From NCBI GenBank assembly GCA_045657125.1, contig JAZOSM010000084.1, forward strand, positions 1 to 44,702: 44,702 nucleotides of DNA, read 5' to 3'. Within the stretch, counting starts at the first letter, position 1, and each line of letters begins with the position of its first letter. The stretch comes from Eubacteriales bacterium. Its GTDB lineage: Bacteria; Bacillota; Clostridia; Oscillospirales; SIG627. Of the stretch, positions 4,393-30,400 are shown piece by piece. Position numbers and translations under genes: made by a program. Below the pieces are notes generated by a model. It was not told the origin of the DNA and made no database searches. It worked only from the letters and a program-made list of their open reading frames with translations.

Positions 4393-5595
4393 TTAGTTGT
4401 TTGTATAGTTGTCGAAATAGCCTTGAACCAAAACAACAGGCGTTCCTTTGTCACCAGAACCGCTTGTCAAGTCGCAGAGAGAACCGATCAAGTCGGTAAG
4501 CTGACGGGGAGTAGTACCCTGAGAAGCCATATTGCCAACGAGGTTTTCGTTCTTCTTTTTGATGCTTTCTGCGATTGCCTTCTTCAGTTCCTCGCCGGAA
4601 AGATCCTTATAATCGTTGTCAGCAAGGTACTTCAGTTTCAATTCGTTGGGAGTACCGATGAGACCGTCGGTAAATGCGGGGGATACAACCGGGTCAGCCA
4701 GTTCCCAAATCTTACCTTGGGGATCCTTGAAAGCGCCATCGCCGTAAACCATAACCTCTACGTGCTTACCGGTAGCTTCCAGAATCTTTTTCTGAATGTC
4801 AAGCACCAAGGGCTTGCATTCTCTGGGGAAGAGCTTAACCTTGTCCTCGGTAGCCTTGTTGGAACCAAGCAAACCGTACTTTTCGTTGAAACCGCTTCCA
4901 TCTATGGAGGAGGTCAGGATTTCATCCAAGCCATAAACAGCCTTAGCACCGTGCTTTTTCAAGAGACGCTTGGTTCTTGCGCGGGTGTGGATGTCGCAGG
5001 TAAGGATGTGATCTGCGTAGGGGAGTACGTACTTTGCCTGGTTACCGAAAATGATTTCTACTTCAGCGCCTTCTTCGCGAATCAAATCTGCATAATACTG
5101 TACATAGTCTACACCGGTAAATTCGTGTTTGTTTTCGCCGAAAAGTTCTCTGTATTTTTCAAGAGAGAGTACGTCGGTATAGGGATCGATTCCTGCTTCG
5201 TCGATTTTGTCAATGCTAACAAGCTCGTTACCAACCTCATCGGAGGGATAACTAAGCATCAGAACGATTTTCTTAGCGCCACGTGCAATACCTCTCAGAC
5301 AAATCGCAAAGCGATTTCTGGAGAGAATGGGGAAGATTACGCCGACGGTTTCGCCGCCGAGCTTATTCTTAACGTCCTGAGCGATACTGTCGATCGAAGC
5401 GTAGTTACCCTGTGCGCGAGCTACGATAGACTCGGTCATAGAGATAACGTCACGGTCACGAATCTCAAAGCCTTCTGCTGCTGCAGCTTCTAAAACGCTT
5501 TCGGAAACGATTTGAGCGAGATCATCGCCTTCACGAATGATAGGACAACGAATACCTCTGGAAACCGTACCAACTCTTCTCATGTTTTCTTCCAT
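4393..5595 (-). CDS. CofE-family (F420-0:gamma-glutamyl ligase-like) protein with a large internal insertion
   Basis: N-terminal PIIREGDDLAQIV...ESIVARAQG and C-terminal TSGSGDKGTPVVLVQG resemble CofE. RBS AAGGTGGA. Confidence 0.6.
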   Translation of the reverse strand: MEENMRRVGTVSRGIRCPIIREGDDLAQIVSESVLEAAAAEGFEIRDRDVISMTESIVARAQGNYASIDSIAQDVKNKLGGETVGVIFPILSRNRFAICLRGIARGAKKIVLMLSYPSDEVGNELVSIDKIDEAGIDPYTDVLSLEKYRELFGENKHEFTGVDYVQYYADLIREEGAEVEIIFGNQAKYVLPYADHILTCDIHTRARTKRLLKKHGAKAVYGLDEILTSSIDGSGFNEKYGLLGSNKATEDKVKLFPRECKPLVLDIQKKILEATGKHVEVMVYGDGAFKDPQGKIWELADPVVSPAFTDGLIGTPNELKLKYLADNDYKDLSGEELKKAIAESIKKKNENLVGNMASQGTTPRQLTDLIGSLCDLTSGSGDKGTPVVLVQGYFDNYTNN

Positions 5596-8532: not shown

Positions 8533-8970
8533 TTAAAATAATGACGTTACCCAATAAATAACCCCATAAAACACACTCGCTACCGTGCCGTAAACAATAA
8601 CAGGTCCTGCAATTATAAACATTTTTGCGCCTACGCCTAAAACCCACCCCTCTGCTTTGTTGTCGATTGCGGGAGAGCACATTGCGTTTGCAAATCCTGT
8701 TATGGGCACTAGTGTTCCTGCACCTGCGGTCTTTGCTATTTTATCAAAAATACCGATTCCGGTTAACAGGCAGGCGAAAAAAATCAGTGTAATCGGTGTA
8801 ATTTTTTTTGATATTTCTTCGCTTATTCCAATTTTTTGTGAAAGATTCTGAATCAATTGTCCCAAAGCGCAGATTCCGCCACCAACTAAAAACGCAAAAC
8901 AACAATTTTTGAGAGTTGGGGTAGGGGAGTCGTGCTTTTTTACGAGTTTTGTATAGTCACTGTTTTTCAT
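8533..8970 (-). CDS. spoVAC: stage V sporulation protein AC
   Basis: 145-aa membrane protein with the SpoVAC pattern (NCCFAFLVGGGICALGQ, VPITGFANA). Confidence 0.88.
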   Translation of the reverse strand: MKNSDYTKLVKKHDSPTPTLKNCCFAFLVGGGICALGQLIQNLSQKIGISEEISKKITPITLIFFACLLTGIGIFDKIAKTAGAGTLVPITGFANAMCSPAIDNKAEGWVLGVGAKMFIIAGPVIVYGTVASVFYGVIYWVTSLF

Positions 8971-9019
8971 TTTTTATATACCTTTCTTGACGAGATATCT
9001 CTGATTGTGTAAAATGAAA

Positions 9020-9193
9020 CTACATTAAAGATTGCATCGAATTTTTCTGCTTGTATTTTTTAAAATCGGAAGCATAATAGATACATTTCTTTTGTTCGAT
9101 ATGAAAAATACTATTTTGTACGTTATACTTAAATTTGCACTTTCCGTTTTCAAAGTAAATGCAATCCTTTCGGCATATATTTTTATAATACAT
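9020..9193 (-). CDS. unannotated 57-aa Cys-rich small protein (hypothetical)
   Basis: Own translation: MYYKNICRKDCIYFENGKCKFKYNVQNSIFHIEQKKCIYYASDFKKYKQKNSMQSLM. GAGGTG lies 6 nt before the ATG. Below the track's 60-aa cutoff. Confidence 0.4.
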   Translation of the reverse strand: MYYKNICRKDCIYFENGKCKFKYNVQNSIFHIEQKKCIYYASDFKKYKQKNSMQSLM

Positions 9194-9247: not shown

Positions 9248-10042
9248 ATGATAATCAGAAGCGCAAAGAATACAGATAAAAGTCAAATTCTCGCTTTGTG
9301 GCAGGATTGTTTTCATGATCCACAAGAATATATTGAACAGTATCTTTCAAAGCGTTTTGATCCTAAATACTGTGTAATTTTAGAAGATAAAAGTGAAATT
9401 GTTGGGATGGTTCATCTATTGCCGTGCAAAATTTCGCCGGACACGAACGCTTTTTATTGGTATGCGGCGGGAATAAAAAGTACAAGAAGAAATGAAGGTT
9501 TATTTCGTAAATTCTCAAGTTTTTTGATTGAGAAGATCAATCAAGCGGGTTTTAAAAGTGTTTGCGTTCCTGCATCGGGTCTTGAAAATTTTTATATGTC
9601 AATCGGCTTTCGATATAAGCTTACCGCAACAGATAAAACTTTCATTAAAAATATTACAGAATCCCAAACAATTAGAAATTCTTCTTGGAGTTCTGCAAAA
9701 GTAGAAGATTTTCTCTGTAAGGGGAATAGCGGAGATATCATTTGGGATACCAATGCTATAGATTACGCAATATATGAAAACGATCGTTGCGAAGGTAAAG
9801 CTTACTCTGTAATAATCGACAACAAAAAGCATTCTTTATTTGCGATAAAAAAAGATGACGGATTTTTAATCGATTACCATTTTTTATCCGAAAAAGATTT
9901 TTTGCAAATCAAAGACGATCTTTTTAATCTTCTGGCGTGTGATCGTTTGATCTTCAGAGACATTGGTACGGAAAAGATTATTGCTTTAACAGACTCTGAT
10001 TTGATAAAATCTGATTCAAAGATTTCCATGACCTTGGCATAG
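9248..10042 (+). CDS. GNAT-like acetyltransferase family protein
   Basis: AGGAG RBS. N-terminal half resembles a GNAT fold (IVGMVHLLPC..., AAGIKSTRRNEGLFRKF). Call is weak. Confidence 0.5.
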   Translation: MIIRSAKNTDKSQILALWQDCFHDPQEYIEQYLSKRFDPKYCVILEDKSEIVGMVHLLPCKISPDTNAFYWYAAGIKSTRRNEGLFRKFSSFLIEKINQAGFKSVCVPASGLENFYMSIGFRYKLTATDKTFIKNITESQTIRNSSWSSAKVEDFLCKGNSGDIIWDTNAIDYAIYENDRCEGKAYSVIIDNKKHSLFAIKKDDGFLIDYHFLSEKDFLQIKDDLFNLLACDRLIFRDIGTEKIIALTDSDLIKSDSKISMTLA

Positions 10043-10064
10043 GGAGGCTGGAATAAAATTGACC

Positions 10065-10080
10065 CAACTATACAAAATGC
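10065..10080 (+). repeat. left direct repeat / attL core (CAACTATACAAAATGC)
   Basis: Identical 16-mer at 12840-12855. Confidence 0.85.
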
Positions 10081-10115
10081 CCGTTTTGTTTGACTCGGTA
10101 GGCACGGCAAGCGCG

Positions 10116-10124
10116 TTGATATAT
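10116..10124 (+). repeat. TTGATATAT copy 1 (GTTGATA, nick-site-like)
   Basis: AT island at the left edge of the GC-rich block. Identical 9-mer at 10705-10713. Confidence 0.6.
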
Positions 10125-10704
10125 TGAGTAAGCGAGGGTCTGATGGGGGCTCGCGGGTATTTGAAAGGGTGTAGTATGGAGGCGCGCTCCTTCCCCTTGG
10201 GGAAGGCGGGGGCAGGGGGAAACCTTACCCGCGAAGCGGTGTAACTTTTAAAGCGGGTCTGGTACTGTAGTGGCGAGCTACGGCGCAGACGAGGGCGGGC
10301 GAGCACGCGCAGCGGCGCAGAGCAGGGCACGGCACGTGCCCTAGAGACCCCCGAGTATGCAAAGCTGTGGCCGCCACGATATAGCCGGACAGGGGCACAA
10401 AGGCGGGGTCCCCCGAGGGGCGCCCCGAAGCGAAGCGGAGCGAATAGGCGAGTGGACGAGCCTCCTGAGCGGAGCGAAGCGCGGGGGGACCCCGACGGAT
10501 GGGACTACTCCCCCGTTAAGCCTACGGCTACGGAGCCAACGGCTAGGGTAGCCGTAGGCTATAGCTTCCCGCAGGGAAGCCAATAGGCTGCCGCGCAAGT
10601 GGTAGCCTACAAGAAGCGAAGCGGGCGAAGCCTGCCGCCGCAGGCGGGGGCGCAGCAGCGCGGAGCGGTACATCTCCGCGGCAAGATCTCGGCTTGCCTT
10701 TTAC
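10125..10704 (+). other. GC-rich hairpin-dense non-coding module (candidate single-strand origin, or structured ssDNA/RNA)
   Basis: Five GCGAAGC copies (10231, 10430, 10474, 10616, 10625). Perfect hairpins at 10189-10206, 10324-10342, 10520-10559, 10564-10580, 10630-10645, 10659-10680 and 10680-10698. Only Arg/Pro-rich junk ORFs. Confidence 0.6.
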
Positions 10705-10720
10705 TTGATATATAACCACA
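10701..10720 (+). other. candidate double-strand origin with CTTG/ATA nick motif
   Basis: TTACTTGATATATAACCACA contains CTTGATA, the nick core shared by the phiX174 ori (CAACTTGATATTAATAAC) and pC194-family plasmids. It follows a hairpin and lies ~40 nt upstream of rep. Confidence 0.5.
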
Positions 10721-10751
10721 TTATTCTGTCAAAATCTGCCCAAAATCAATT

Positions 10752-11663
10752 TTGGACGAAATCAATCACAGCGCAAAAAACATTGGAAGCACGAACGGAA
10801 TTTCGCTTCCTGCAGCGCCCGTTTTCGGGCACAAAGCATCATCCGAGGTACTTTATAACTCTTGCACAAAATTCTATCCGGATGGGGCTGGGGGATTCTA
10901 TCCGGTAAAAAGGGTTACCTTTGATCGTTTGATTTACAATCCCCGCAAAATGGAACTTCATCGGGACGAAACCTTTGACGAGGTTGTTGTTTCTACCGAC
11001 CCCTTTGGAGATGATACGAAACTTCGTAATCGTTCCGAGGTTTTCAACACCTTTTGGCGGAAATCTTTCAACCGTGCACGGCAGCAATGCTATGACTATC
11101 TCATGTGCAATTCCGACCTTGACACTTTCGTAACTTTCACTTTTGACCCGAAGATGATCGACCGATGTTCTTACGAGTCTATCGTTACCTCTCTTTCGAT
11201 CTGGCTTTCAAACCGTGTCCGCAGGAACGGTTTGAAATATATTCTTGTTCCTGAAAGGCATAAGGATGGGGCTATTCATTTTCACGGGATTACAAATAGG
11301 GAGGGCTTGAAGCTCGTTTCTTCGGGATATTGGAGGGTTGGCAAGTACACTCTTGCATGGGATCAAATCGCGTCTTCGAAAAAAAAGCTTGCACAGGAGA
11401 TATACAACGTGAAGGACATGCCCCTTGGCTTCTCGACTGCTCTGATCGTCGACGGGGAAGACGCCCAGGTTAAAATTTCCAAGTATATCTGGAAGTATAT
11501 GACAAAGCAGGGCGGGCAGAAAGTGGGCGGCAGATTCTATCTTCACGGCGGAGACCTCGCCCAACCTTTGCTTATTTACTCCAACGAGCTTTTCGAGGAT
11601 GACGAGGGAACCCTCGTCACGTACGGTCAGACGGCTTGCAAAATTTTGAACCTCAACAGTTGA
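10752..11663 (+). CDS. rolling-circle replication initiator, HUH superfamily, two-tyrosine type (start uncertain)
   Basis: Motif I FVTFTF, motif II IHFHGI (HUH), motif III YIWKYMTK (YxxxY as in phiX174 gpA and microvirus VP4). TTG is the only canonical start and there is no clear RBS. Confidence 0.72.
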   Translation: MDEINHSAKNIGSTNGISLPAAPVFGHKASSEVLYNSCTKFYPDGAGGFYPVKRVTFDRLIYNPRKMELHRDETFDEVVVSTDPFGDDTKLRNRSEVFNTFWRKSFNRARQQCYDYLMCNSDLDTFVTFTFDPKMIDRCSYESIVTSLSIWLSNRVRRNGLKYILVPERHKDGAIHFHGITNREGLKLVSSGYWRVGKYTLAWDQIASSKKKLAQEIYNVKDMPLGFSTALIVDGEDAQVKISKYIWKYMTKQGGQKVGGRFYLHGGDLAQPLLIYSNELFEDDEGTLVTYGQTACKILNLNS

Positions 11664-11684
11664 CTTTTTTAGGAATGTAAACTG

Positions 11685-12299
11685 ATGAAAAGTGACTATC
11701 TAAAGCCGTCGACCTACGAACACTTGTACCGGGTAATGCAGCGGGACAACGTACTGGCTATCAGGGTCTCTTTGGAGACGGGTCTTCGCATTGATGACGT
11801 GCTGCGGCTGGAGTGGAAGAACTTCACAAAAGGCAATCAATTTACCTATTTTGCCAAGAAAACGGGGAAAAAAGGTGTGAAAAAGTTGTCAAAACTGCTG
11901 AAAAACGAGCTTTTCTCAAGAAACGTGCACGGTAGCAAGTATGTCTTCCCCGGGAGAAAGCGGGGATCACATCGGACACGACAAGCCGTCTGGAAGGACA
12001 TCAAGAAGGCGGCTGATCTGATGGGGGTAGAGGTGAACGCTTCGCCGCACTCTGCCCGAAAAACTTACGCCGTAGAGTTGCGAAAAACCGCTGGTTTGCC
12101 AGCGGTTCAACGAGAGTTGCAGCACAACTCAATGTCTACCACAATGCTTTACGCCTTTGCCGATCTGGCACGTGCGGGCAAGCGGACACCGACCCCATCC
12201 AGTGACGATCTGATAGAGCTTGCCGATTTGATCGCAAAGAGGGTAGTCGAGCTTCTCCTTCCGGAGCTCGCCAAAGCAAAAGAAAAAAACCTAGGTTGA
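11685..12299 (+). CDS. tyrosine recombinase/integrase, catalytic domain only (204 aa)
   Basis: ETGLRIDDVLRL (Arg I), PHSARKTYA (HxxR), LQHNSMSTTMLYA (His...Tyr). Confidence 0.85.
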   Translation: MKSDYLKPSTYEHLYRVMQRDNVLAIRVSLETGLRIDDVLRLEWKNFTKGNQFTYFAKKTGKKGVKKLSKLLKNELFSRNVHGSKYVFPGRKRGSHRTRQAVWKDIKKAADLMGVEVNASPHSARKTYAVELRKTAGLPAVQRELQHNSMSTTMLYAFADLARAGKRTPTPSSDDLIELADLIAKRVVELLLPELAKAKEKNLG

Positions 12300-12316
12300 C
12301 AACCTAGGTTTTTTTT
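12283..12316 (+). terminator. terminator after the integrase gene
   Basis: 10-bp stem AACCTAGGTT / AACCTAGGTT with loop GAC, A-run before and T8 after. Overlaps the stop codon. Confidence 0.7.
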
Positions 12317-12839
12317 GGTACACTACCCATTGCCGGGGTGGCAATGTGGACGTATGGGGTAGTGTTTGACGTGTAGCACGTCGGCGCTCTTATACTGTAC
12401 CACGTTTGTTTCGTTTTGTCAATACCTTTTGCAGAAACTGTCCCTTTTATCGGACACGTACTGCGCACCCATGGCGGGCGCAAGGCGGCAAGGGCACCCT
12501 TCTCACAAAGTACCTCTTGCCCTTGCCGAATAAGCTCGACCGTCGATCTCGGGGTGCTGATGGAAGCGGGACAAGCACCAGCCACGGCACAAGACTATAA
12601 TTCGCACAAGCGGGTGAACCGCAAAGCGAGGAAAGGAGTAGGCAGAGACAGAAGCGCGCAGCCGTGGAAGTCCGTGGCTTTAATCCTGCCGAACCATACA
12701 AAACGTCCATTTTGTAGCCGAGAGAATTTCTCTGACCCAATCAAAGACAAACCAACGGTCAGAGAAATTATCTCGTGCTCTAGTTGTACGGGGCGACGAA
12801 AGGGGAAACAAGCGTAGCGCCCCTTTTGTTCGGCCTAGT

Positions 12840-12871
12840 CAACTATACAAAATGCAAATTTTGTATAGTTG
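12840..12871 (+). repeat. right direct repeat plus a lox/dif-like palindromic core (attR)
   Basis: CAACTATACAAAAT-GCAA-ATTTTGTATAGTTG has 14-bp perfect inverted arms. Its first 16 nt equal the left repeat. Confidence 0.8.
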
Positions 12872-12977
12872 GGGGCATAGAGTTTGAAATATACGGAGGT
12901 TAACGTCAATATTTTCCTTATATTTCGGTTTTGTCTATGATCTATTTGAACCGCTTAAACCTGTCTTTCTTTCCAGA

Positions 12978-13016
12978 TAAAAAAAGAAGCTCTTTTGTAG
13001 GGCTTCTTTTTCTTTT
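12978..13016. terminator. possible bidirectional terminator downstream of the 13071-13382 gene
   Basis: A-run, stem AGAAGC / GCTTCT, T-run. Confidence 0.4.
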
Positions 13017-13070
13017 ATATGATTCTATTGTGAAATGTACGTTCTATTTCGTTGATCTGTATTGGGTTTA

Positions 13071-13382
13071 CTATTTTAACATTGAAAGAATTTCGCTTGG
13101 TTCCAATAGTTCTGTGCTTCTTTTATAAATTTTTTGATTTTTTACAGATATGTATTCAGGAACGTTTTTAACAGAAAATGCTGCGGTGATATCAGGTTCT
13201 GCATCAATGTCAATTAAATACATATCAAATGGTTTTGCAATAAATGAAAATACGTCGTTCATTGCATTGAGACCTAAAATTGAAGACGGATCTTCTTTTC
13301 TGTAAAAGAACAATATCAAGTCATTTTCTCCACGAATTACCTGATCGAAATGTGCCCTACACAAATGTTTTAATTCTTCCAT
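13071..13382 (-). CDS. thioredoxin-fold protein lacking the CxxC active site
   Basis: Trx-like C-terminal pattern (AAFSVKNVPEYISVKN). ATG at 13382 has GGAGG 8 nt upstream. Confidence 0.6.
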   Translation of the reverse strand: MEELKHLCRAHFDQVIRGENDLILFFYRKEDPSSILGLNAMNDVFSFIAKPFDMYLIDIDAEPDITAAFSVKNVPEYISVKNQKIYKRSTELLEPSEILSMLK

Positions 13383-13409
13383 TCGTTTTAGCCTCCAATT
13401 ATACAAAAT

Positions 13410-14633
13410 TTATTTACGGATCAGATCTCCTTGCTTTAGTTCCGTATTTGTTTTGATATAAAAGATTTGCTGTGGATGCGGACAGGACGTAATTTTTTCC
13501 ATTTTCTCATCAAACATTTCTGTGAATTCCAAAGTTTGACCGACTTTCCCGGGAGTTACGAATTCGCAGGAATCACCAACGGAAAATTTGTTTCTTTGCT
13601 TGCATTTGGCAAGACCTGTATTTTGATCATAATTCAAAACCGTGCATAAAAATGATTTCTCTCCGATATAACCGTTATCCGAAGCAAGCTGCGAAGAGTT
13701 CATTTCACGGTCAAAATAATATCCCGTGCAATACTCACGATGTGAGACACAATCAAGTTCCCGTAATAAAATTGAATAATCAATTGCCTTGTCGAAGGAA
13801 TTCATTGCTATTCTGTACGCATTGGTAACAAGCGCCGTGTAATAAGCACTTTTCATTCTGCCTTCGATTTTAAAGCTTGAAATACCTGCTTGCGTCAATT
13901 CTTTCAAATGCTCGATCATACAAAGATCTTTGGAACCGAATAAATAACTGCCTTCCGGATGAATTTCGCAGGTCAAAATTTCATCAGGGCGCTTTTCTTC
14001 ATAAAATTGGTATTGCCAGCGGCAAGGCTGGGTGCACTCTCCCCTATTTGCATCCCTGCCGGTATAATATTCGGAAAGCATACAACGTCCCGAAAAAGAT
14101 ACGCACATAGAACCGTGTACAAAAGTCTCAAGTTCAAGATTTGTCGGAATTTTCTCGCGGATACCAATAATTTCGGAAAGAGATAATTCGCGCGCGAGAA
14201 CCACACGGCTGGCACCCATTTCATACCAGGCACGGCAGCTTTCTGCATTTACCGTTGCCGCCTGGGTTGATATGTGAATCGGGATTTTGGGGATGTGCTT
14301 TTTGCAAAGCATAAAAACACCAAGATCGGCTACGATCACTGCATCAGGCGCACATTCTGATAATTCTTCAAGATAAGCCACAAGCATAGATAACTCGTGC
14401 TGTCTCGGCATCACGTTAAGGGTCAGATAAACTTTTTTATTAAGGGAATGTGCATAAAGAATCGCAGATTTGAGTTCTTCAATGGAAAAATTGTCGGCCG
14501 CCGCACGCATTCCGAATTTTGAACCTGCAAGATAAACGGCATCTGCACCAAATCGAAAGGCTGACTCCATTTTTTCGTAATTCCCCGCCGGAGCAAGAAG
14601 CTCCGGCATTGAAATATTACTGAAATTACTCAT
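13410..14633 (-). CDS. peptidase U32 family protein
   Basis: N-terminal ELLAPAGNYEKMESAFRFGADAVYLAG and Cys-rich core typical of U32. Confidence 0.85.
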   Translation of the reverse strand: MSNFSNISMPELLAPAGNYEKMESAFRFGADAVYLAGSKFGMRAAADNFSIEELKSAILYAHSLNKKVYLTLNVMPRQHELSMLVAYLEELSECAPDAVIVADLGVFMLCKKHIPKIPIHISTQAATVNAESCRAWYEMGASRVVLARELSLSEIIGIREKIPTNLELETFVHGSMCVSFSGRCMLSEYYTGRDANRGECTQPCRWQYQFYEEKRPDEILTCEIHPEGSYLFGSKDLCMIEHLKELTQAGISSFKIEGRMKSAYYTALVTNAYRIAMNSFDKAIDYSILLRELDCVSHREYCTGYYFDREMNSSQLASDNGYIGEKSFLCTVLNYDQNTGLAKCKQRNKFSVGDSCEFVTPGKVGQTLEFTEMFDEKMEKITSCPHPQQIFYIKTNTELKQGDLIRK

Positions 14634-16021
14634 TTTCTGTTATAAAAAGCAAGACAAGCTTCGTAAGTGCTGTAAACGTCAAGTTTCGATACAACTTCAT
14701 AAGGTGCGTGCATGGAAAGCACGGGTACACCCAGATCTACTACGTCAATATTGAGTTTTGCAATATACTGAGCAACGGTTCCACCACCGCCCTGATCTAC
14801 TTTTCCAAGCTCACCGATTTGCCAAACTACCGAATTTTCGTTCAAAATTTTGCGAATTTCGCCCATAAATTCTGCGGAAGCGTCGGACGTGCCACTCTTA
14901 CCGCGTGCACCCGTATACTTTGTGATAATGGCACCGTGATTTAAAAGTGAGCTGTTCTGCTTTTCATAAACTTCCGGGAAAATCGGATCGTAGCAGGCAT
15001 TTACATCGGCAGACAAGCACCAGGAATTTGCCAATGCCTGTCTTGCATTCTTCTTACCGCATAATTCGCACAAAAAGTCATAAAGATAATTTGTATTCAA
15101 ACCGGTATTGCCGCTGCTGCCAATTTCTTCTTTATCAGCAAAAACCAAAACGGACGTGTGCAGGGGCTTTTGGGCATCAAAGAACGCCATCATTGAGGGA
15201 TATGCGCATACTCTGTCGTCGTGTGCATAAGAAGCAATCAGATTGCGGTCAAAACCGACGTCTCTTGCCTTCAGCGCAGGAACAAGCATCAATTCGGAAG
15301 AAATAAAATCTTCCTCGACCATTCCGTATTTTTCATTTAAAAACTGGAGAACGCGCACCTTTACTGCTTCGGAAACATCATCTTCGCTTTGCACGGGCAA
15401 GGAACCTGCAATTACAGCTAAGTTTTCGCCGGGTGTAAGTTCTCCTGCCACTCGTTTCATTTGATCCTGTGCAAGATGAGGCAAAAGATCTGTGATATAA
15501 AAAATCGGATCATTTTCATTCTCACCAATGCAAACATCAATTTTTTCGCCGTTTGCAAGAATTACTGAGCCGTGAAGCGCAAGAGGTACGGTAGGCCATT
15601 GATATTTTTTGATTCCGCCGTAATAATGGGTTTTAAAATAAGCGATGGATTCTTTTTCACAAAGAGGGTTAGGTTTTAAATCAATGCGCGGCGCATCGAT
15701 GTGGGATGCAATAATCCCGAATCCATCCGTAACGTCTTTTTCACCGATTACAGCAAGAATAATCGACTTATTTCGATTGACATAATAAATGCGATCACCC
15801 GCTGAATATTCTTTTCCGTACTCAAAAGAAACGAAACCCTTTTCCTCGGCAAGATTTTTGGCAAAAACAACCGCTTCTCTTTCGGTTTTTGCGGCGTTTA
15901 AAAATTTTTTATAGCCTTCAGCAAAATCAAAAGCTTTATTGATCTTTTCGGAATCAAATACTTTGGCGGCACTTTTGGTGCTAAAGCAAAGTTTTTCTCT
16001 CAACTCATTTTTTTCGCTCAT
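14630..16021 (-). CDS. M18-family aminopeptidase
   Basis: 463 aa with M18-like motifs (SHIDAPRIDLKPNP, ADKEEIGS, SMHAPYE). Confidence 0.82.
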   Translation of the reverse strand: MSEKNELREKLCFSTKSAAKVFDSEKINKAFDFAEGYKKFLNAAKTEREAVVFAKNLAEEKGFVSFEYGKEYSAGDRIYYVNRNKSIILAVIGEKDVTDGFGIIASHIDAPRIDLKPNPLCEKESIAYFKTHYYGGIKKYQWPTVPLALHGSVILANGEKIDVCIGENENDPIFYITDLLPHLAQDQMKRVAGELTPGENLAVIAGSLPVQSEDDVSEAVKVRVLQFLNEKYGMVEEDFISSELMLVPALKARDVGFDRNLIASYAHDDRVCAYPSMMAFFDAQKPLHTSVLVFADKEEIGSSGNTGLNTNYLYDFLCELCGKKNARQALANSWCLSADVNACYDPIFPEVYEKQNSSLLNHGAIITKYTGARGKSGTSDASAEFMGEIRKILNENSVVWQIGELGKVDQGGGGTVAQYIAKLNIDVVDLGVPVLSMHAPYEVVSKLDVYSTYEACLAFYNRK

Positions 16022-16036
16022 AACTTTCTTCCTTTT

Positions 16037-16624
16037 CTAAAAAATTGATTTTAACACTTCAATACATTTTTTGTGTAATTCTTCTTGTGTTCCGTTGTTT
16101 TCTATTATTATGTTTGCGCGAGATTTTAATTCTTCATCAGAAATTTGATTGGAAATTCTTTTCTTTGCAACTTCGGGATCAATATTATCTCGTAATTTTA
16201 AACGACGGAATTTTACTTCGTCATCCGCTACAACGGCAATTACATAATCACAGCGTTGATCGAGATTTGCTTCAAACAGCATCGGTGCATCAATAACGCA
16301 CCCTTTAACGTTTTCTTTTTCCATCTGTTTGATGCTTTCTTCGAGTTGCTCTTTTACGTGCCGATGGGAGATTTCGTTTAATAGAAGCATTTTATTTCGA
16401 TCGTTATAAACAATCGCGGATAATTTTTTTCGGTCTAATTGCCCTGAAGAAATAACGTCTTTTCCAAAATGTTTTGCGATCTCATCCAGGCAAGTAGACG
16501 GAGCATCCACCAACCGATGATAGATTATATCGCAATCCAAAACAGGCAGATTATTTTCTTCAAAAAAACGACTGACGGTACTTTTTCCGGATCCGCTGTT
16601 ACCGCAAATACCAATAATTTTCAT
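16037..16624 (-). CDS. coaE: dephospho-CoA kinase
   Basis: P-loop GICGNSGSGKST; length and CoaE pattern fit. Confidence 0.9.
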   Translation of the reverse strand: MKIIGICGNSGSGKSTVSRFFEENNLPVLDCDIIYHRLVDAPSTCLDEIAKHFGKDVISSGQLDRKKLSAIVYNDRNKMLLLNEISHRHVKEQLEESIKQMEKENVKGCVIDAPMLFEANLDQRCDYVIAVVADDEVKFRRLKLRDNIDPEVAKKRISNQISDEELKSRANIIIENNGTQEELHKKCIEVLKSIF

Positions 16625-16627
16625 AAA

Positions 16628-17677
16628 TTAAACCTCAATGGAATGAAAAGCGCACGCGCGGAGCAATCGATTGGAAATCGCAAGTCCAAGATCGTCCTGC
16701 TTGGTCTGTCTTGTATAGATTTGAGGAACGGAAACGGAGTCAAACTTTCTCAGAGCATCGAACAATCCCGAGGCCTGTGAAAGCAGATCGTCTTTTGAAC
16801 CGAAAGAAATGATGTTTTGATCGAAGCCTTTTCCTCTCAAAAACTCTAAATCTTCCTCAAAACAAAGAATACCGCATCCTTCACTAATTTTTTCAATGAA
16901 AAATTCAATCACACGATCCTCTGATCCAAACACCATTGTAACAGGAGATTTGGGGGCGTAATGACGGTATTTCATTCCCGGAGACTCCGCTTTTTGATCT
17001 TGCTGTAATGCAGACAAAACCGCATCTGAAACGATCACATGATCAGTTACCGATTTCAGATCTTCAAGAGTAACAAAACCGGGGCGCAACAGACGAATCT
17101 GATCACCGTCCAGAGAAATAACGGTAGATTCCAAACCGACTTCACTTTCGCCGCCGTCAAGAATCATGGGAATTCTGCCACTCATATCCTCAATGACGTG
17201 ATTTGCCTCCGTGGGGCTTGGGCGTCCCGATAGATTTGCCGAAGGAGCCGCAATGGGGCGTCCGGAGACACGTATCAAAGCTCTCGCAACCGGATGCGAC
17301 GGACAGCGGAGTGCTACCGTCGAAAGACCGACCGTAACCTCATCCGGGATAACATCCTTTTTTTTCAATATAACAGTCAAAGGTCCCGGCATAAAGCGAC
17401 GAGCAAGTTCATTTAATAAAGGCTGATTTTCAGTGTAAGCATAGTCGGAAAAATCGGCGGGAGATAATACGTGAACAATTAAAGGGTTATCCCGCGGACG
17501 CATTTTAGCATCGAAAACCTTATTACAGGCTTCCGCATCCAAAGCGTTTGCACCAAGTCCGTAAACAGTTTCCGTTGGGAAAGCAACCAGATCACCTGCT
17601 CGAATAATCTCTCCCGCGTTTTGCAAAGAAGAATCTTCAAAGCAATTGGGATCAATTTTTAAAATTTCTGTTTTCAT
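16628..17677 (-). CDS. tsaC: L-threonylcarbamoyladenylate synthase (Sua5/YwlC type)
   Basis: YrdC domain ([25 protein letters not shown]) plus a Sua5 C-terminal domain. Confidence 0.9.
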
Positions 17678-18747
17678 GAAATATCACCGTTTTCAAGCTG
17701 CTCCATTCTTTCGGCAGTCGTCAATGCTTCCACTAGTTCGTCAAGTTTTCCGTTAAGAATATTATCGATGGAATGAAGCGTCAACGAAATTCTGTGGTCA
17801 CTGACACGGCCTTGAGGATAGTTATAAGTTCTGATACGTTCGCTTCGATCGCCTGAACCAATCTGACTTTTTCTTGCATTTGAAATTTCAGTCGCTTGTT
17901 TTTCCAATTCAAGCTTATGAATTTTTGAACGAAGAACCTTCATTGCTTTTTCTCGATTCTTCAATTGACTTCTTTCGTCCTGGCATTCTACGATAATGCC
18001 TGTTGGCTTGTGAAGAATTCGAATTGCGGAGTCTGTTTTGTTGACGTGCTGACCGCCTGCACCACTTGCTCGGTGGGTATCGATTTCCAGGTCCTGCGGA
18101 TTGATGGTAACCTCAACGTCTTCCGCTTCGGGAAGAACGGCTACGGTAACGGTAGAGGTTTGAATTCGGCCTTGAGATTCAGTTTCGGGAACTCGCTGAA
18201 CGCGATGAACGCCGCTCTCAAATTTCAATTTGGAATATGCACCGTCGCCTTCGATCATAAAGGAGATTTCTTTATATCCGCCAAGCTCGGTCTCGTTGCA
18301 ACCGATAATCTCGCTTTTCCAACCGTTGTTTTGTGCATACATTGTATACATACGATATAAAACACCCGAAAAAAGCGCAGCCTCTTCCCCACCGGCGCCT
18401 GCACGAATTTCCATAATAACGTTTTTATCGTCATTGGGATCCTTAGGCAGCAAGAGGATTTTGATTTCATTCAACAAACGGGCTTCTTCAGCTTTTGCTT
18501 CTTCAAGCTCTTCCTGCGCAAGAAGAACCATTTCTTCATCAGGCTTTTCTGCAAGAATTTCCGCCGCGTCTTTTTGGCGCTCAACCGAATTTGTCAATGC
18601 GCGGTAGGCTTCGATAATAGGGGTAAGATTTTTATAATCCTTCATAAGCTGCGTATATTTTGCTGTAGATGAGACGACCTCGGGATCTCCGAGCATTTTT
18701 TCAATTTCAAGATATCGCAGCTCAGCGTTTTTCAATTTATCAATCAT
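17674..18747 (-). CDS. prfA: peptide chain release factor 1
   Basis: PET (PxT) motif [10 protein letters not shown] and GGQ ([11 protein letters not shown]). Confidence 0.93.
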
Positions 18748-24421: not shown

Positions 24422-27400
24422 TTATTCACGGGAATCTTTTTCAATTTCCTTCCACTTTTCAAGTAACTGTAAATACCAGGAAGCCGCGCCAGTATACCAG
24501 CTCCACCCGCCGTGACCGCGAAAACCTTTTGCAGCATAAATATCTCCGCACAATACATAGGGCTCTCTTTGATATCGCTCAAACAGTTCTCTTTTTACGT
24601 TGATCGTCGGATCGAGAATCTCAGTTAATGTCCGCGCTTTTTTAATCAATTGATCATCTTTTAATTCTTTTCCGAAATCAAGCATTGCCATAGCAAACCA
24701 AACGGCAGCGTGGGTGTATTGACCACCGTTTTCTCTGACACCTGCACAATATCTCTGAATATACCCGGGTGAAGGCTCGGTATTTACAAAAGGCTTATCA
24801 AAAAGTTTTATGATTCGATGTTTGGAATCCACAAGAATTTCGAAAGCGGCATTTAATGAGCTTAGAACCATCTCATTGTCCAATTTGTGCTTTGTCTCGC
24901 GAAATTCAAGATTATAAAACGCAGCGAAGGCTTGCGTTATCAAGTCGATACTGCATTCCGATTGAAGCAGTCTGTCATTTCCGAGCACCTGACCGTTTCT
25001 TCTGTGAGCACGAACAAACCACGAACCGTTGAAAGATTTTTCCAATCCGCTTTTCAGTTTGCCAAGCACACACTCAATTTCTGCTTGTGTTTGCATGGAA
25101 AGATGTTTTTTCACGCGGTTCAAACAAATTGCCGAGAAGAAAGCGAGCCAAACACTATCTCCCTCAACCGAATTCATACCGTCATTCCAATCTCCGATTC
25201 CGATATCAGGCAGATTGTTTTCACCTAGTCCTTTTGACAGAAACAGCTTTGCGGCTTTCTCCAAATGCACAAGCATACTTTCACTTTTTCCGCGACACGT
25301 TGAAATATATTTTTCCTTTTCACATTCGTTTAGTTCTTCGCCAATTAAGAAAGGAATTTCAACGTTTAAAATTGAATCATCGCCCGTTTGATCCATATAT
25401 ACGGTGACACCGTAAATTAACCAAAGATAATCATCGCTGCACCTTGTTCTGACACCGGGATCCCATTTTTCTTCGTTTCTGATTGTATGCCACCAATGCA
25501 AAACGTCACCTTCTTCAAACTGATGTGATGCACAACGAATCAAATGAACTCGCGTTCGTTGCGGATCATTTTTGATAAATGACAGACAATCTTGCAATTG
25601 ATCTCTGAACCCATAAGCTCCGCTGGACTGATAGAGCCCTGTTCTACCGTAAAATCGAGAATGAAGAACCTGATATTGCAACCAAAATTCCTGTAAGTTC
25701 ATTTTTTGCACACGATTCACAGACTTCTTGATATTGGAAAGAATCATTTCTTTCGCCCGTTCTTTTAGACCTCCTCTAATAAATTCCAGGTGGGTTTCAT
25801 TGGTATATCCGCCCAGGAAAAAGAAATTTTCTTCACCGGAATTCACAGCAAAACAAAGTCTGTTTTGTGATTTAAAACAAGAAGCCTTCTTGTCTAATGA
25901 GCTAAAAAACGATTTTCCGAAATAATCATCGTAAATAGCGGGAGAAATACGAAATACATCATCTTTCAAGTCCACAAATACGTTTTTATTTGCAAATTGC
26001 CCCAAGGATGGAACAAAAGAAAAGATCAATTTCGAATCTTTCAATTGGTTTGATAAAATGACTACAATACTTTTTGCTGAGAATTCTTTAATCAAAGTAG
26101 CAAAAACGGAATATTGCTCACCAAATATTTCACCTTCATAAATTGCCATCGAGGATTTATACGAGATATTCCGAGCAATTTGCAAAAGATCGTATTCAAT
26201 TCCGTCTTTTGATAAAAAGATTTTTTCTCCGTCATCACCGCTTGGCAAATTATCCCATCGGGATATTCTGTTTAATCCGGAATTTCTAAACCAAGTGAAC
26301 CCCAGCGAATTCTGATTACAAACAAAACCAATATTTGGCGCAGAAACAACGTGTGAAAACGGGACGTTTGGATTGAATTTTTCTTTTGAAATGACAAATC
26401 CATTGTTTTGAAATTTACCAACTTCATCAGCATCGGAAGAAAGATTGCTTGAACTTTTGAAAATCCGCATTTGTTTTTCTTTTATTTCATCCATCCCTAC
26501 AACATTTCCACGATAAACCAGCCGCGCCGAAACGGATTTCCAAAACTTAAGATCCATTTCTTCGCACACTACAAAATGAATTCCGGGGTGTTTGCCGATC
26601 AAAAATTCGCATTGAAGCTGCGACACGATATTGGATAGCGCTTCTCTTTTATGATCAAAGTAACCGCAGGATTTTTCGTGAAGAATTACAAAATCAAATA
26701 AATTTATTCCCGAAAGAACAAGTGCTTTAAATGCGGAAATATAAGATTTCAAACATTTCAAAGCAGTTTTGTCACTCGATTCCAAAAAAAGCGAAATAAT
26801 CTTTCGATCGCCCGAAATTCCATATTTCCATAATTGATTTTTTTGAGATGAATCAAAATCTGTTTGATAAAAATTTTCCGTTGCGTTTAAAAGCAAAAGC
26901 ATTTCATTCAAACAATTTAAAGAGTAACGATCTAAATGACAGGTCTCATGAAACCTTGATAATTTATGCAAAGAGATCTCCCGCATATTTTTGGAAAACT
27001 GATATGAACCGTCAAAAATTTCCTCAGAAAGCAAAGATGAATCGTTGTCAAAAGAAAACACGAGGGGAATTACAAGGCTTTCCGCCGATTCCAAATCAAA
27101 AATAATTTTCACATCGGAATCATAAAGCATTCGCCAATCAAAAGATTCACTTTCTTTAAAGTGAGAAAATTTTGTTTTAAACGGTTTCGACGAATAGATC
27201 AAAACAACATCGTGTTTTTCTGTGCCTCGGCGCCGCAAAATCAATTTATTTTCGCCCGCACACCCTTCCAGAGATAAATTGTGGAAGGCAGAATGCGCAC
27301 GATAAACCTCTAACGCTTGATATAGAAAGTGAAAATCAACCTCTACCCGACAATTCTCGGAAACACCGTTCACTTCCATTCGCATAAAAAAAGCATTTTT

Positions 27401-30400
27401 TCCGTAAATCGGTGCATATCTGACAGCAAAAGAACTTTTGTTTTTGATCAGGATTTTCTCAAAACAAATTCCATCAAATCTGATTTTTGACCGTTCAATA
27501 TTTTCAATTGTAAGTTCTTCTCCCGATTCAAAAAAAGTACAGGTAAGTCCACCTTTTTCATGGTCAAATACATCTTTGGATCGATATAATAAGCGATTTT
27601 TTCCATCATCATAAGCAACAAAAGCAGTTTTTCCGTCGGTCATTAGTTTTCCGTTTTCCGCCTTAAGCTTAAGAGATAGATTTTCTCGCTTTGTTTTCAC
27701 TTCTTTAGAAGTATTTTCTCTGTTGAAATGTTTTCTTTGGTAGACCTTTCCTTCAATGGGAAAACGCTCTGCCAAGAGTTCTGTTTTTTCATTGAAACCC
27801 ATTCTCGACATAAAACGTTGGACGTTTTTTTGATCGCACAGAGCGTTTGCAATGGAAAGAAAGCTCATTCCTTTGTGATGAGCCATATAAGATCGAACCA
27901 CGCCAAAATCCATTGTACGACCGGATGAAAATTCTACTGCTTCAAAATATCCCATCGGACCCAAGCACCCTATTTTCTTCAACAAATCCAAATTCTTAAA
28001 TGAATGGACACCGCCTTTTGAAAGCATTAAAAAAGTAGAATACGGCGAAATTACCTTGCTGTCATATTTGCGTTCAACAATGGATAAATACGGAACGCCA
28101 AAAGCCATATATTGCAGATTTTCGTTATCATCTGTAAGAAGATATCCACTCTCGCTAATTCCGTAAATACTGCCGAATTCCCGATGTGCCGCATATTTCT
28201 TTTGACAATGATAGGCGAAATCCAGACTTTCATCTTCCAATGAGTTTTCTATGATTGGCAAAAACAGTGTGGGCATAAAATATTCAAAGCAAGTACCCGA
28301 CCAAGACCCGATTCCGACACGGCCTGCCAAGGATAAAACAGGTCTCTTTGTGGAATGCCAATGGGAAGGAGGAATTTGTCCCAAAGAAATGGCAAGAAAT
28401 GAGGTAATTCGTGCCTCACTCATATACAAATCGTAGTGAGAACCTCGAACCTTCTTATCATTTGTGAAAATCCCAACGTAAAATAAGTTTTCCGACCAAT
28501 CAAACAAACACTTAAAATTTGCGTTTTCGATTTCGGATTCAACCCTGGTTAACAGCTTCTTTGAATCACTGTTTTCGTGAGACCACTCTGCAAGAGCATT
28601 CGCTACGACAACCAGAGATGCAATATAATTTCCACTGTCCACCGTTGAAACAAAACGATCTCCGATTACATTCAGTGTATTCAGATCATACCAATTGTAA
28701 AGATGACCTTCATAATGTTCCATATTTTCAATGGAATCAAAGGCTTTTCCTATTAAATTCGTGCATTCTGCGGAAGATATTATCCCCAAATCTACCGCAC
28801 TGACCAATGAAGCAAGATAAAGGCCTATATTTGTAGGAGACGTTCTGTTAGCGATTTTTTCAACAGGTTCAAATTGAATATTGTCCGGAGGTAAAAAAGA
28901 ACTTTTTTCGTTGACCATATTTTGAAAAAAACGAAATTCAAGTATTGCAAATTCTTTTAATTTTCTTCTTTTTTTCTCATCAATTAAATCCGTTTCTACA
29001 TATTTTTCAGAGATTGCCAGCATAATAATCGGATAAAACAGAAAAGAAAGTGAAACAAAAAACAAGATTGATACTCTACTGAACATCAAAATGAAAGCTG
29101 AAATTAAAACAGATGGCAAATAAAAAAGCATCTGATCTTTATTTTGACCGCTGAACGGAGTATAAGTTTGCCATTCCAGTGTCTTTCTTTTCGATATAAA
29201 AGCACGATAAAAGCCGCGTAGCATAGCGTCCGAATAATGATACGCTTTGTGTGCGATTCCTGCAAAGGATAACAGGCGTTGATAAAGAGTGTTCAACAAA
29301 TGATTTCGTATTTTCGTTCTGAATCGTCTGCCAAACAATTGAAAATTTCGTGCAACGAGAAATTTTACAGCATCAAAAACAAGTGGATAGAATTCAAAAA
29401 TTACAACGGTCAAAGCGCAAATTGCCGCGCAATCTTTTGATACAAAGTTTGAAAAAACAAGAAGCGCCAGTTCTGCAAGCGGCAAAAAGTATCGAAGAAT
29501 GTTTTCCGCAGCAAAACAACAACGCAATCCCGGAATAATGGAGTAAAACGGTATATTCTGTACGTCCCCGCGGATCCACCTATGAATTCTTTTATCACTG
29601 CTGATGGCAGTTTGCGGATCGGAATCCATAAAATATTCATCACAGGCAATGGCCGATCGAAGCAGAGCACCCTCGATCATATCGTGACTTAAGATGCGCT
29701 GTTCGGGCAAAGTGTTACTGACAACGGACCGATATGCCTCCAAATCGATAATGCCCTTGCCGCAGAAGTTCCCTTCCTCGAATAAGGTTTGCATACTATC
29801 AAAGGCGGCTCCGGAATAAGGTAGTTCGCCGCTTCCGTTGCTGAATATTTTGGCATAAGGGGTAGTAATCGGCGTTAATAAAGATGGTGCTATCCGTGGC
29901 TGAATCAAACCGTGTCCTGACGTAACGTACTTTCTTCCGTTAGCCAATTTCGTTATGCGCGGTTGATTCAAGGGATGAATCATTTTTCCAATCAAGCGTT
30001 TTGCTTGACCTATACCAAGCTCCGTGTCGGAATCAAGAGTAATTAAATACTTACTTCCGACTACGTTACGATTTCCAAAAAAAGTAATGTTCTTTATCTC
30101 TGATCCAAATTTCAAAAACTCGGCAAACTGTTCAATTGCACCTCGTTTTCTTTCCCAACCGACGTATGAGTTCTCGCTTTCGTGGTAGACACGCTCTCTT
30201 ATTACGGCAAAATAGCAATCATTTTTTTCATTGAGACGATCTATTTCCTGTTTTAAAAGTTGAATGATATTTTCATCGTTTTTATGATTCTTACTTTTTG
30301 ACTGGGGCAGATCGCAAATCAATCCAAAATAAAGGCGGTCGTTTTCGCTTTTATTGTTTAAGCAATATTTTTCAAGTTTTTTAACGCTTTCAAACAGATC

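Follow-up and report, generated by a model that had tools for sequence, protein, structure and literature searches.

A two-gene rolling-circle mini-replicon inserted at the apparent dif site of a gut Clostridium

Introduction

The closest described systems to the element reported here are CTXφ and related integrative mobile elements exploiting Xer (IMEX), which insert at the chromosomal dif site. In CTXφ, attP consists of two inverted sites, attP1 and attP2, approximately 90 bp apart; their centers measure 12 bp and 5-7 bp, and neither site can be used as a duplex; the plus-strand form, attP(+), is folded from approximately 150 nt, takes its specificity from bases beside one of the arms, and undergoes a single strand exchange that is resolved by replication (PMC4246890). 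A spacer-matching rule for strand exchange has been established for both CTXφ and VGJφ (PMC4246890). Filamentous capsids have no lower size limit, and the satellites TLCφ and RS1 carry no morphogenesis genes (PMC4246890, PMC6744903), with Xer recombination of TLCφ being activated by the protein XafT (PMC6744903). Here we analyzed a 44.7-kb stretch of DNA from a Eubacteriales bacterium (contig JAZOSM010000084.1, positions 1 to 44,702; "the window" refers to this whole stretch) and found that the insert between positions 10065 and 12855 is a two-gene, ~2.8-kb rolling-circle mini-replicon inserted at the host dif, a variant of the CTXφ-class IMEX-like elements. Its new features are the Firmicutes hosts, the content of only two genes, an own Xer-like recombinase reduced to the catalytic domain, and a GC-rich, thymine-poor block.

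A preliminary description of this DNA had concluded that the element matched no known class of mobile element, but its logic is that of a dif-integrating IMEX of the CTXφ/RS1 class with a predicted folded single-stranded DNA (ssDNA) attP. Like CTXφ and RS1, the element has a filamentous-phage-type HUH Rep, inserts at the chromosomal dif and regenerates dif at one end, and carries two inverted dif-like sites tens of nucleotides apart with predicted plus-strand pairing, centers that are irregular in most relatives and one-sided homology to dif; tandem copies occur occasionally. Unlike CTXφ, it resides in a Gram-positive gut Clostridium host (Oscillospiraceae) with a palindromic dif of XerD-type arms, has two genes only, without morphogenesis (Zot/pI, coat), regulatory or cargo genes, and encodes its own catalytic-domain-only recombinase where CTXφ encodes none. 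It also differs in its T-free, GC-rich block and in the abundance of free circles, and hence is not a dead-end insertion.

Several other systems resemble the element in part. TLCφ (Cri Rep plus XafT) is likewise a small, satellite-like HUH replicon without virion genes that integrates at dif and brings its own protein factor, XafT making Xer recombination independent of FtsK; its attP, however, is a simple 28-bp duplex, XafT is an activator and not a recombinase, its genome is 4.7 kb, and its host is Vibrio. Plasmids of the pC194/pUB110 type and 1.4-kb Staphylococcus plasmids (NC_013451) have in common with the element the Rep family, a CTTGATA-type nick motif and tiny size, and a structured single-strand origin would be expected to precede the double-strand one, but these plasmids are without recombinase, attP, integration or T-free block. 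Integron recombination (attC × attI, by IntI) offers a further parallel, in that a tyrosine recombinase acts on a folded ssDNA hairpin and exchanges one strand with resolution by replication, as we propose by analogy for the element, whereas IntI is full-length with an I2 helix, the cassettes are non-replicating, and the target is attI. In LME-1 of Legionella, too, a dif mimic on a mobile element revealed an overlooked host dif (XerL/dif), although LME-1 is large and phage-like, relies on host XerL and has no rolling-circle replication. To our knowledge, the documented cases of folded-strand integration at dif are those of CTXφ and a few relatives in γ-proteobacteria. Full-text literature searches returned no account of the present element family or of an Oscillospiraceae dif site.

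Boundaries and gene content of the insert

The 16-nt direct repeat CAACTATACAAAATGC, described earlier as bracketing the insert, was present in exactly two copies in the window, at 10065-10080 and 12840-12855; by our estimate the chance expectation for a repeated 16-mer within a few kb is ~0.002. Counting one repeat copy, the insert measures 2,775 bp and has a GC content of 52.3%, compared with 39.9% for the rest of the window, with a peak of 66-68% over 10150-10600. Previous hand counts of G+C, 44/60 in the lines starting at 10261 and 10381 and 18/60 in the host line starting at 9961, were exact. Only rep and int matched a protein family and no other open reading frame (ORF) in the insert matched any, which bears out the claim of an integrated rolling-circle element composed of an HUH Rep, a 204-aa tyrosine recombinase and nothing else. 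No mobilisation gene was found in the ORF list or in the family scans of the insert, and no tRNA or tmRNA gene was found as a target in the window, with none in or adjoining the insert. The non-coding share, previously put at about 44%, was computed as 45%; this DNA is hairpin-rich and contiguous in the circle. The right-hand repeat sits within a perfect 14+14-nt palindrome at 12840-12871 (CAACTATACAAAAT-GCAA-ATTTTGTATAGTTG), and a third, repeat-related site was observed inside the element at 12685-12717.

The target site

The right junction, attR (12840-12876, + strand), reads CAACTATACAAAA TGCAAA TTTTGTATAGTTG followed by a purine motif (GGGGG), and has the form of a regenerated, intact dif. 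The 28-nt dif core was identical and single-copy in nine other Clostridia genomes, whose sites are identical to attR over 12840-12871 (L001-L009; loci of our survey are given by L numbers) and span at least six unrelated gene neighborhoods. Eight of the nine were uninterrupted, which provides in other genomes the empty site that the preliminary description had proposed as a check, and the ninth carried a related element. No empty site was found in the window's own gene neighborhood, all three syntenic relatives (L010, L011, L013) being occupied; the expected empty site with the flanks joined reads …TTGACCCAACTATACAAAATGC/AAATTTTGTATAGTTGGGGG….

Across the family, host sites took the form of an arm ending in AAAA, a 6-nt spacer (TAAAAA, TAAATA, TGCAAA and others), a mirror arm, and a purine motif, (A/G)GGGGAG, a few nucleotides to the right, with arms that varied by species and were palindromic over 12-14 nt. 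The commonest variant, CAACAAAATAAAAATTTTGTTG, was observed once each in more than 120 Oscillospiraceae genomes among the matches listed. When loci were oriented by their asymmetric spacer and GC skew was compared between the left and right sides, 53 of 56 genomes had the larger value on the left, with the +/- pattern in 39 and -/+ in 0 (sign test p-value = 8e-13), as expected of a site at the replication terminus with a fixed polarity. Six loci were examined for neighboring recombinase genes (L245, L255, L293, L230, L249, L343); in each an XerD-type gene lies 1.2-3.3 kb left of dif, and these six genes scored 333-342 bits against the NCBI XerD equivalog cutoff of 329.6; a host-type recombinase match near dif was observed in 25 of 120 loci. 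A single-recombinase Xer system is suggested by this linkage of xerD to dif, which resembles the xerS-difSL and xerH-difH modules. The right arm TTTTGTTGAGT agrees in 8 of 11 positions with what we take to be the XerD-binding arm of E. coli dif (TTATGTTAAAT), and the overall shape (…AAAA-N6-TTTT…) resembles that of the single-recombinase sites difSL and difH (PMC5357621). The target of the element thus appears to be the host dif, a palindrome of two XerD-type arms around a 6-nt A-rich spacer, and the element exposes in the Oscillospiraceae a dif that is often linked to xerD.

The window contains in addition an inverted right half of dif (GCCTCCAATTATACAAAATTT) at 13391-13411, 514 nt to the right of dif and 90% complementary to 12856-12876. 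Together with dif it encloses a small thioredoxin-like ORF (13071-13406, - strand), and it is kept in syntenic L010 (~2852) and L011 (~8534). This inverted half-site may have been left behind by an older insertion at dif.

Free circles and integrated copies in related genomes

A total of 564 Rep homologues were found, mostly on contigs of 2.4-3.1 kb, together with ~2,000 recombinase homologues, the best 120 of which were all 185-248 aa in length and nearly all on contigs of 1-4 kb. The pairing of Rep with a small recombinase was observed in well over 100 of the 217 loci surveyed, with more than 20 being circular contigs of 2.3-3.6 kb. Two contigs of relatives had exact 141-nt terminal overlaps (the assembler k-mer) and form circles of 2,744 and 2,719 bp that carry rep, int and the GC-rich block in the same order as in the window. 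The autonomous circle, a form that the preliminary description had proposed looking for, is demonstrated by these contigs of relatives, not from the source sample, and the window's own element is known here as an integrated copy; its expected circular junction joins 12839 to 10081 through one repeat copy (…GGCCTAGTCAACTATACAAAATGC/CCGTTTTGTTTGACTCGG…). Integrated copies were observed in Flavonifractor, Intestinimonas, Dysosmobacter, Acutalibacter, Faecousia and other Oscillospirales. The int gene was present in essentially all family members and was better conserved than rep, and the functional naming of family proteins in the sources stops at "integrase".

Our initial survey for tandem arrays saw none, and a later scan of dif loci revealed the pair in L330, where two tandem Rep and mini-Int elements lie 3,417 nt apart directly to the left of dif (~-5322 to -252). 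By analogy with tandem CTXφ prophages, such an array would permit the release of circles from the chromosome by rolling-circle replication.

In L018, ~90 nt to the left of attL (4890-4980 compared with 9019-9110) repeat the right end of the element, as direct repeats of 57 and 33 nt. These left-flank repeats suggest a remnant of an earlier copy adjoining the present one.

Junctions and a predicted folded attP

The left junction, attL (10065-10102, + strand), is a hybrid site composed of the host left arm CAACTATACAAAA, the spacer TGC/CCG, and an element-specific right arm, X' (TTTTGTTTGACTCGGTAGG). With H and H' as the host-type arms, the junctions of the window are H-TGC/CCG-X' at attL and H-TGCAAA-H' at attR. 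L011, L012 and over 20 further integrated relatives showed the same hybrid attL, with GAG as the element half of its spacer in L011 and GCG in L012. In 25 integrated relatives the direct repeat ended 1-4 nt into the spacer, the attL spacer was element-specific and 6-11 nt long, and attR was always an intact host-type site with a 6-nt spacer. The H arm was identical to the host arm over 12-23 nt, and that of the element mirrored host-specific arm variants, e.g. ATATAAAA in L012. Because the spacers match solely at their 5' end, only one strand pair is productively exchangeable, in keeping with the rule for CTXφ and VGJφ (PMC4246890). On the strand bearing the nick motif and the sense of rep, the spacer's 5' edge marks the crossover, and this position is consistent with where a top-strand-only exchange of a rolling-circle-displaced strand should fall.

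The internal dif-like site, which we call site 1 (12685-12717, + strand), has an arm X (CCTGCCGAACCATACAAAA), a spacer CGTCCA and an H'-like arm (TTTTGTAG), and is predicted to pair with attP. All family members had such a site, located 60-220 nt ahead of attP. Beyond its core, site 1 has 14 nt that are complementary to the 14 nt beyond the attP right-arm core of the same element, whereas these sequences are unrelated between elements. In an anchored comparison the outer-arm pairing score was 6.6 within elements and 1.7±1.6 between elements (Mann-Whitney p-value = 4e-12), with scores of at least 5 in 19 of 20 within-element comparisons and 6% of those between elements; this p-value comes from an anchored gapped test that replaced two noisier statistics. 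Minimum free energy (MFE) folds with DNA energy parameters gave a forked hairpin in 7 of 7 elements, with X/X' as the outer stem, a small asymmetric bubble at the spacer, H/H' as the inner stem, and a loop that contains branched hairpins. In the window, the loop between site 1 and attP contains a 19-bp hairpin in the MFE fold (12719-12775, + strand). An internal loop recurred just past the 7-8-bp core of the X arm.

Rep, replication origin and recombinase

The rep gene (10752-11663, + strand) encodes a 303-aa HUH rolling-circle initiator in which the motifs FVTFTF, HFHGI and YIWKYMTK start at residues 126, 176 and 245, and both the HUH motif and the catalytic tyrosine motif are present. Profile searches with both genes, as suggested in the preliminary description, placed Rep in Pfam PF23343 (REP_ORF2-G2P; E = 2e-10, exceeding the curated cutoff) and in PHROG 3419 ("rolling circle DNA replication initiation"), and Int in PF00589. 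Upstream of rep, the double-strand origin (10680-10719, + strand) consists of a hairpin, GGCAAG..CTTGCC, followed by the conserved sequence TTTACTTGATATATAACCAC, with the nick predicted at CTTG/ATA between 10707 and 10708. The origin was unchanged in 10 of 11 close relatives, L012 having one substitution. The nick motif ACTTGATA was kept family-wide, within a hairpin loop in distant members, and the origin motif TACTTGATATA was conserved throughout, lying in distant members in the loop of CCTAT/ATAGG-type stems. The CTTGATA at the origin resembles CTTG/ATA, which we take to be the phiX174/pC194 nick consensus. Used as a DNA probe, the origin sequence returned only loci already known and chance matches. 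A second candidate nick site at 10116 (TTGATATAT), which would bracket the GC-rich block and allow a 590-nt minicircle, was rejected as it was not conserved in relatives.

The annotated viral relatives of Rep that were listed or inspected were gut Inoviridae encoding Zot (Dulem virus 66 and bajarodino virus 76; 29-36% identity), and the plasmid relatives were 1.4-kb cryptic rolling-circle plasmids of Staphylococcus (32-37% identity over the HUH core). The link to microviruses raised in the preliminary description therefore found no support, and neither did an identity as a microvirus or microvirus satellite, the 4-7-kb viral contigs with a related Rep giving no microvirus capsid match. In the viral-contig collection no close relative was found, only those 4-7-kb elements at ~33% identity.

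Other occurrences of the Rep family were observed alongside these. In the smallest cryptic plasmids of staphylococci (1,435-1,475 bp; PLSDB records such as NC_013451 and NZ_CP042044, from Staphylococcus aureus), the HUH core recurs in a product annotated as "hypothetical protein", which, judging from this similarity, is evidently their unannotated replication initiator. A related Rep (~33% identity) was found on separate 4-7-kb contigs (loci L090-L130), a few with terminal overlaps, and in chromosomal insertions of Candidatus Nanosynbacter/Saccharibacteria (L062, L066-L069, L075, L081). One of these contigs (L098; 6,189 bp with a 50-nt terminal overlap) encodes Rep, a full-length integrase with a SAM domain, and proteins of 552 aa and 284 aa, the last two without a match in Pfam or PHROG. 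This 4-7-kb group may represent unclassified ssDNA viruses or plasmids.

The int gene (11685-12299, + strand) encodes a 204-aa Xer-like tyrosine recombinase consisting of a catalytic domain and a long C-terminal helix (residues 173-203). It matched PF00589 (Phage_integrase) over residues 6-157 with E = 1e-19, and R27, H122, R125, H147 and Y156 were invariant in 22 sequences. An AF2 model (pLDDT 83) showed a single catalytic domain plus a 30-residue C-terminal helix, with XerH (on difH), the integron integrase IntI and XerA as the best structural matches. The N-terminal core-binding clamp domain is absent, with the catalytic domain starting at residue 6 of a single-domain model, and scores against the curated NCBIfam Xer models were all far below their cutoffs. 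From these sequences the catalyst would be host XerD, the element's own 204-aa Int, or both acting together, the last being the most likely; in such a reaction Int might take the place of a Xer subunit or activate XerD in the way XafT does for TLCφ.

The GC-rich, thymine-poor block

A GC-rich, T-poor block occupies 10140-10690 on the + strand (G 39%, C 28%, A 21%, T 12.5%) and is purine-rich on the Rep-sense strand. Nearly all family members had such a block, 300-1000 nt long with 65-90% GC and ending just upstream of the nick site; it was missing in 2 of the 23 circles checked (L049 and L151), and its sequence was not conserved between clades. Thymine made up 12.5% of the Rep-sense strand in the window and 2-5% in other members. 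Runs free of T extended up to 433-577 nt, and runs free of any other base were 14-45 nt in most members. That one strand should be kept free of thymine across hundreds of nucleotides is a strong signal and points to unfamiliar ssDNA biology.

The block of one member, L192 (~1650-2250 in the rotated circle), is 91% GC with long CCG/GGC-rich palindromes, is not purine-skewed, and is A-free (143-nt run) rather than T-free, so the T-free rule is not universal.

Mini-hairpins of the type C-GNA-G were dense in the block, which held 10 of the 12 plus-strand GCGNAGC motifs of the element. One of these mini-hairpins (10228-10239, + strand; CCCGCGAAGCGG) has a co-varying stem, with variants showing the pairs CG/GC and GC/CG/AT and the loops GAA, GTA and GCA. 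Another conserved hairpin (10189-10206, + strand; CCTTCCCC-TTGG-GGAAGG, followed by the G-runs GGCGGGGGCAGGGGGAAAC) was unchanged in 9 of 11 close relatives, with compensatory changes in L134 and L012. Family-wide, GCGNAGC was found 161 times on the plus strand versus 31 times on the minus strand, and GNA triloops dominated (GAA versus TTC, 39 versus 8). In 10 of 10 elements the fold of the plus strand was more stable than that of the minus strand, and z-scores were -1.8 to -7 in 8 of 10. DNA mini-hairpins of the GCGAAGC type are extremely stable and nuclease-resistant, bind single-stranded DNA-binding protein (SSB) poorly, and are present where complementary-strand synthesis starts in G4, St-1 and α3 (PMC13037366). 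The hairpin-rich block directly precedes the nick site, and no known single-strand origin family was recognised in it. By analogy, we tentatively regard it as a plus-strand ssDNA structural domain, a series of very stable G-C/GNA mini-hairpins that would keep off SSB and nucleases, serving as complementary-strand origin, packaging signal or both, an assignment we put at somewhat below an even chance.

A coding function of the block was considered and rejected: its long ORFs on both strands stem from the depletion of T and A, are broken by 1-nt indels in close relatives, and have no family matches.

Promoter-like sites and a predicted terminator

Promoter-like sites in the element numbered 7, compared with 1.9±1.4 expected. 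One, TTGACA-17-TACACT with an extended TG (12296-12324, + strand), was kept in close relatives and points through site 1 and attP to the GC-rich block and rep in the circle; should this site drive rep, the gene and its promoter would be parted by integration. A convergent promoter-like site, TTGACA-17-TACAGT (12394-12422, - strand), would give a candidate RNA of ~100 nt ending at a perfect 16-bp hairpin with A/T-run flanks (12283-12315), which is predicted to be a bidirectional terminator for int and a possible countertranscript. From its layout, which is usual for such RNAs, the convergent unit is a candidate copy-control countertranscript. An Rfam scan of 9500-13500 at a permissive threshold gave a single, sub-threshold match to a countertranscript-like RNA, at the int terminator (E = 0.68), and no curated Rfam family matched in the 1.2 kb of non-coding DNA.

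Proposed mechanism and alternative explanations

We propose that the insert is a minimal rolling-circle replicon of inovirus or plasmid ancestry that alternates between a ~2.8-kb circle and an insertion at the chromosomal dif. From the anatomy of the element, Rep would nick the plus strand at CTTG/ATA (~10707/10708) and drive rolling-circle replication, which would release the Rep-sense strand as circular ssDNA. In this single strand, site 1 (12685-12717) would pair with the attP region (12840-12855 joined to 10081-10102), and the resulting forked hairpin would mimic dif, with H/H' as the host-type arm, a partly unpaired 6-nt spacer and X/X' as the element-specific arm. The integration step is modeled on CTXφ: a tyrosine recombinase sitting on the H arms of both dif and the folded attP would exchange only the top (plus) strands at the boundary of arm and spacer, where the first 1-4 spacer bases (TGC in the window) would suffice. 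Replication would then resolve the pseudo-Holliday junction into a hybrid attL and an intact dif at attR, and because dif is intact at attR the host would keep its dimer-resolution site. We consider this explanation as a whole to be probable.

Several observations weigh against the proposed mechanism. The first two covariation statistics were weak (ungapped, 9.8 versus 8.4; unanchored duplex energy, first in 3 of 22), and the covariation shows a pairing that would be compatible with ssDNA, with an RNA hairpin or with a cruciform. The attP spacer is 6 nt in the window's clade and 7-11 nt in most relatives, and with 6 nt a VGJφ-like duplex attP could work in the window's clade, where the hairpin would not be strictly needed. 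L270, one of ~11 occupied dif loci, is an exception in that its element sits inverted on the right-hand side of dif; with palindromic arms and a spacer whose first base is T on either strand, both orientations of insertion may be possible. In having a recombinase of its own the element departs from all classical IMEX elements, which encode none, and on this defining point it is not a textbook IMEX. An ssDNA form, circles in the source sample and the acting enzyme are each inferred from sequence. For the block, no conserved global fold was found among 11 close relatives, in which only local hairpins co-vary, the inovirus relatives and 6-kb circles are without it, and its proposed role, drawn from composition and analogy, is the weakest part of the explanation.

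A reading that is compatible with the proposed mechanism and could be added to it is that the element is a satellite of gut inoviruses, in which the T-free block would be an outsized packaging signal or an origin that out-competes the helper, and insertion at dif the lysogenic stage, as for TLCφ and RS1. The Zot-encoding Inoviridae among the annotated viral Rep relatives, the capsids without a lower size limit, the precedent of TLCφ and RS1, and the absence of a mobilisation gene from the element all favor such a role, and the order of hairpin block, nick site and rep presumably recalls the Ff intergenic region. The viral-contig collection, however, yielded only the 4-7-kb elements at ~33% identity and no close relative, no helper phage turned up in the window, the inovirus relatives are without a T-free block that could serve shared packaging, and tiny non-integrating Staphylococcus plasmids share the Rep. 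On balance we find the satellite role doubtful.

A speculative extension of the proposed mechanism joins the recombinase and the block. Int might be an active subunit that joins the host XerD complex on dif and the folded attP and fires FtsK-gated Xer recombination on demand, which would be a novel mode of Xer hijacking unlike that of XafT, and the T-free block might be a functional ssDNA module of GNA mini-hairpins proof against SSB and nucleases, which could be an entry site for primase or RNA polymerase, provide a packaging signal, or act as a decoy that diverts ssDNA-sensing defences. We regard this combination as a possible but unlikely one; if true, a DNA structure and not a gene would be the main "cargo" of the element.

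Conventional duplex integration by Int alone, in the manner of FimB or Xer, would dispense with host Xer and leave site 1 with an accessory, regulatory or plasmid dimer-resolution function. It draws on the near-universal presence of Int and its better conservation than Rep, on its intact catalytic residues, on a weak match to the tyrosine-type DNA invertase family, and on the 6-nt attP spacer of the window's clade, which fits a duplex core site; tyrosine recombinases of ~200 aa with little beyond the catalytic domain do exist. The 7-11-nt attP spacers of most relatives are nevertheless too long for a duplex core, and the spacers of attP and attB diverge after 1-4 nt in all cases, such that a two-step exchange would leave mismatches. 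Arm covariation between site 1 and attP over up to 18 nt, in sequences unrelated between elements, is hard to reconcile with recognition by a protein, and the copying of host-specific dif arm variants by the element also speaks against duplex integration by Int alone, which we judge to be rather unlikely.

Very unlikely, in our view, is a block that encodes a U-free, GC-rich non-coding RNA payload or a long rep mRNA leader for copy control: the conserved promoter-like site at 12296-12324 does point through attP into the block, the convergent unit is countertranscript-like, and a U-poor RNA from the T-depleted sense strand might resist AU-specific RNases, but the block has no Rfam match, no global fold, few local co-varying hairpins among the 11 close relatives, no conservation between clades and a length ranging over 300-1000 nt, and its loops are GNA triloops, which are stable in DNA, and not the GNRA tetraloops typical of RNA (PMC13037366).

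In abundant gut Firmicutes the family amounts to hundreds of clusters for Rep and ~2,000 for the recombinase, and its carriers include two cultured hosts, Flavonifractor plautii (ATCC 29863; L059) and Intestinimonas massiliensis (L047). If the proposed mechanism is confirmed, ssDNA integration would be a general strategy that is not confined to Vibrio. With its two genes, the element is probably near the smallest DNA capable of both self-replication and self-integration, and it could serve as a vector chassis for genetically intractable Clostridia.

Host gene context

To the left of dif, the window carries a gene for a SpoVAC/SpoVAEB sporulation protein (8533-8970, - strand), and to the right, over 13410-18747 (- strand), genes for a U32 peptidase, an M18 aminopeptidase, CoaE, Sua5 and RF-1. 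This context is consistent with a spore-forming Clostridium and with housekeeping genes converging on the terminus. Two very long host ORFs were also observed in the window, one of 2,308 aa (24422-31348, - strand) and one of 1,390 aa (39021-43193, - strand).

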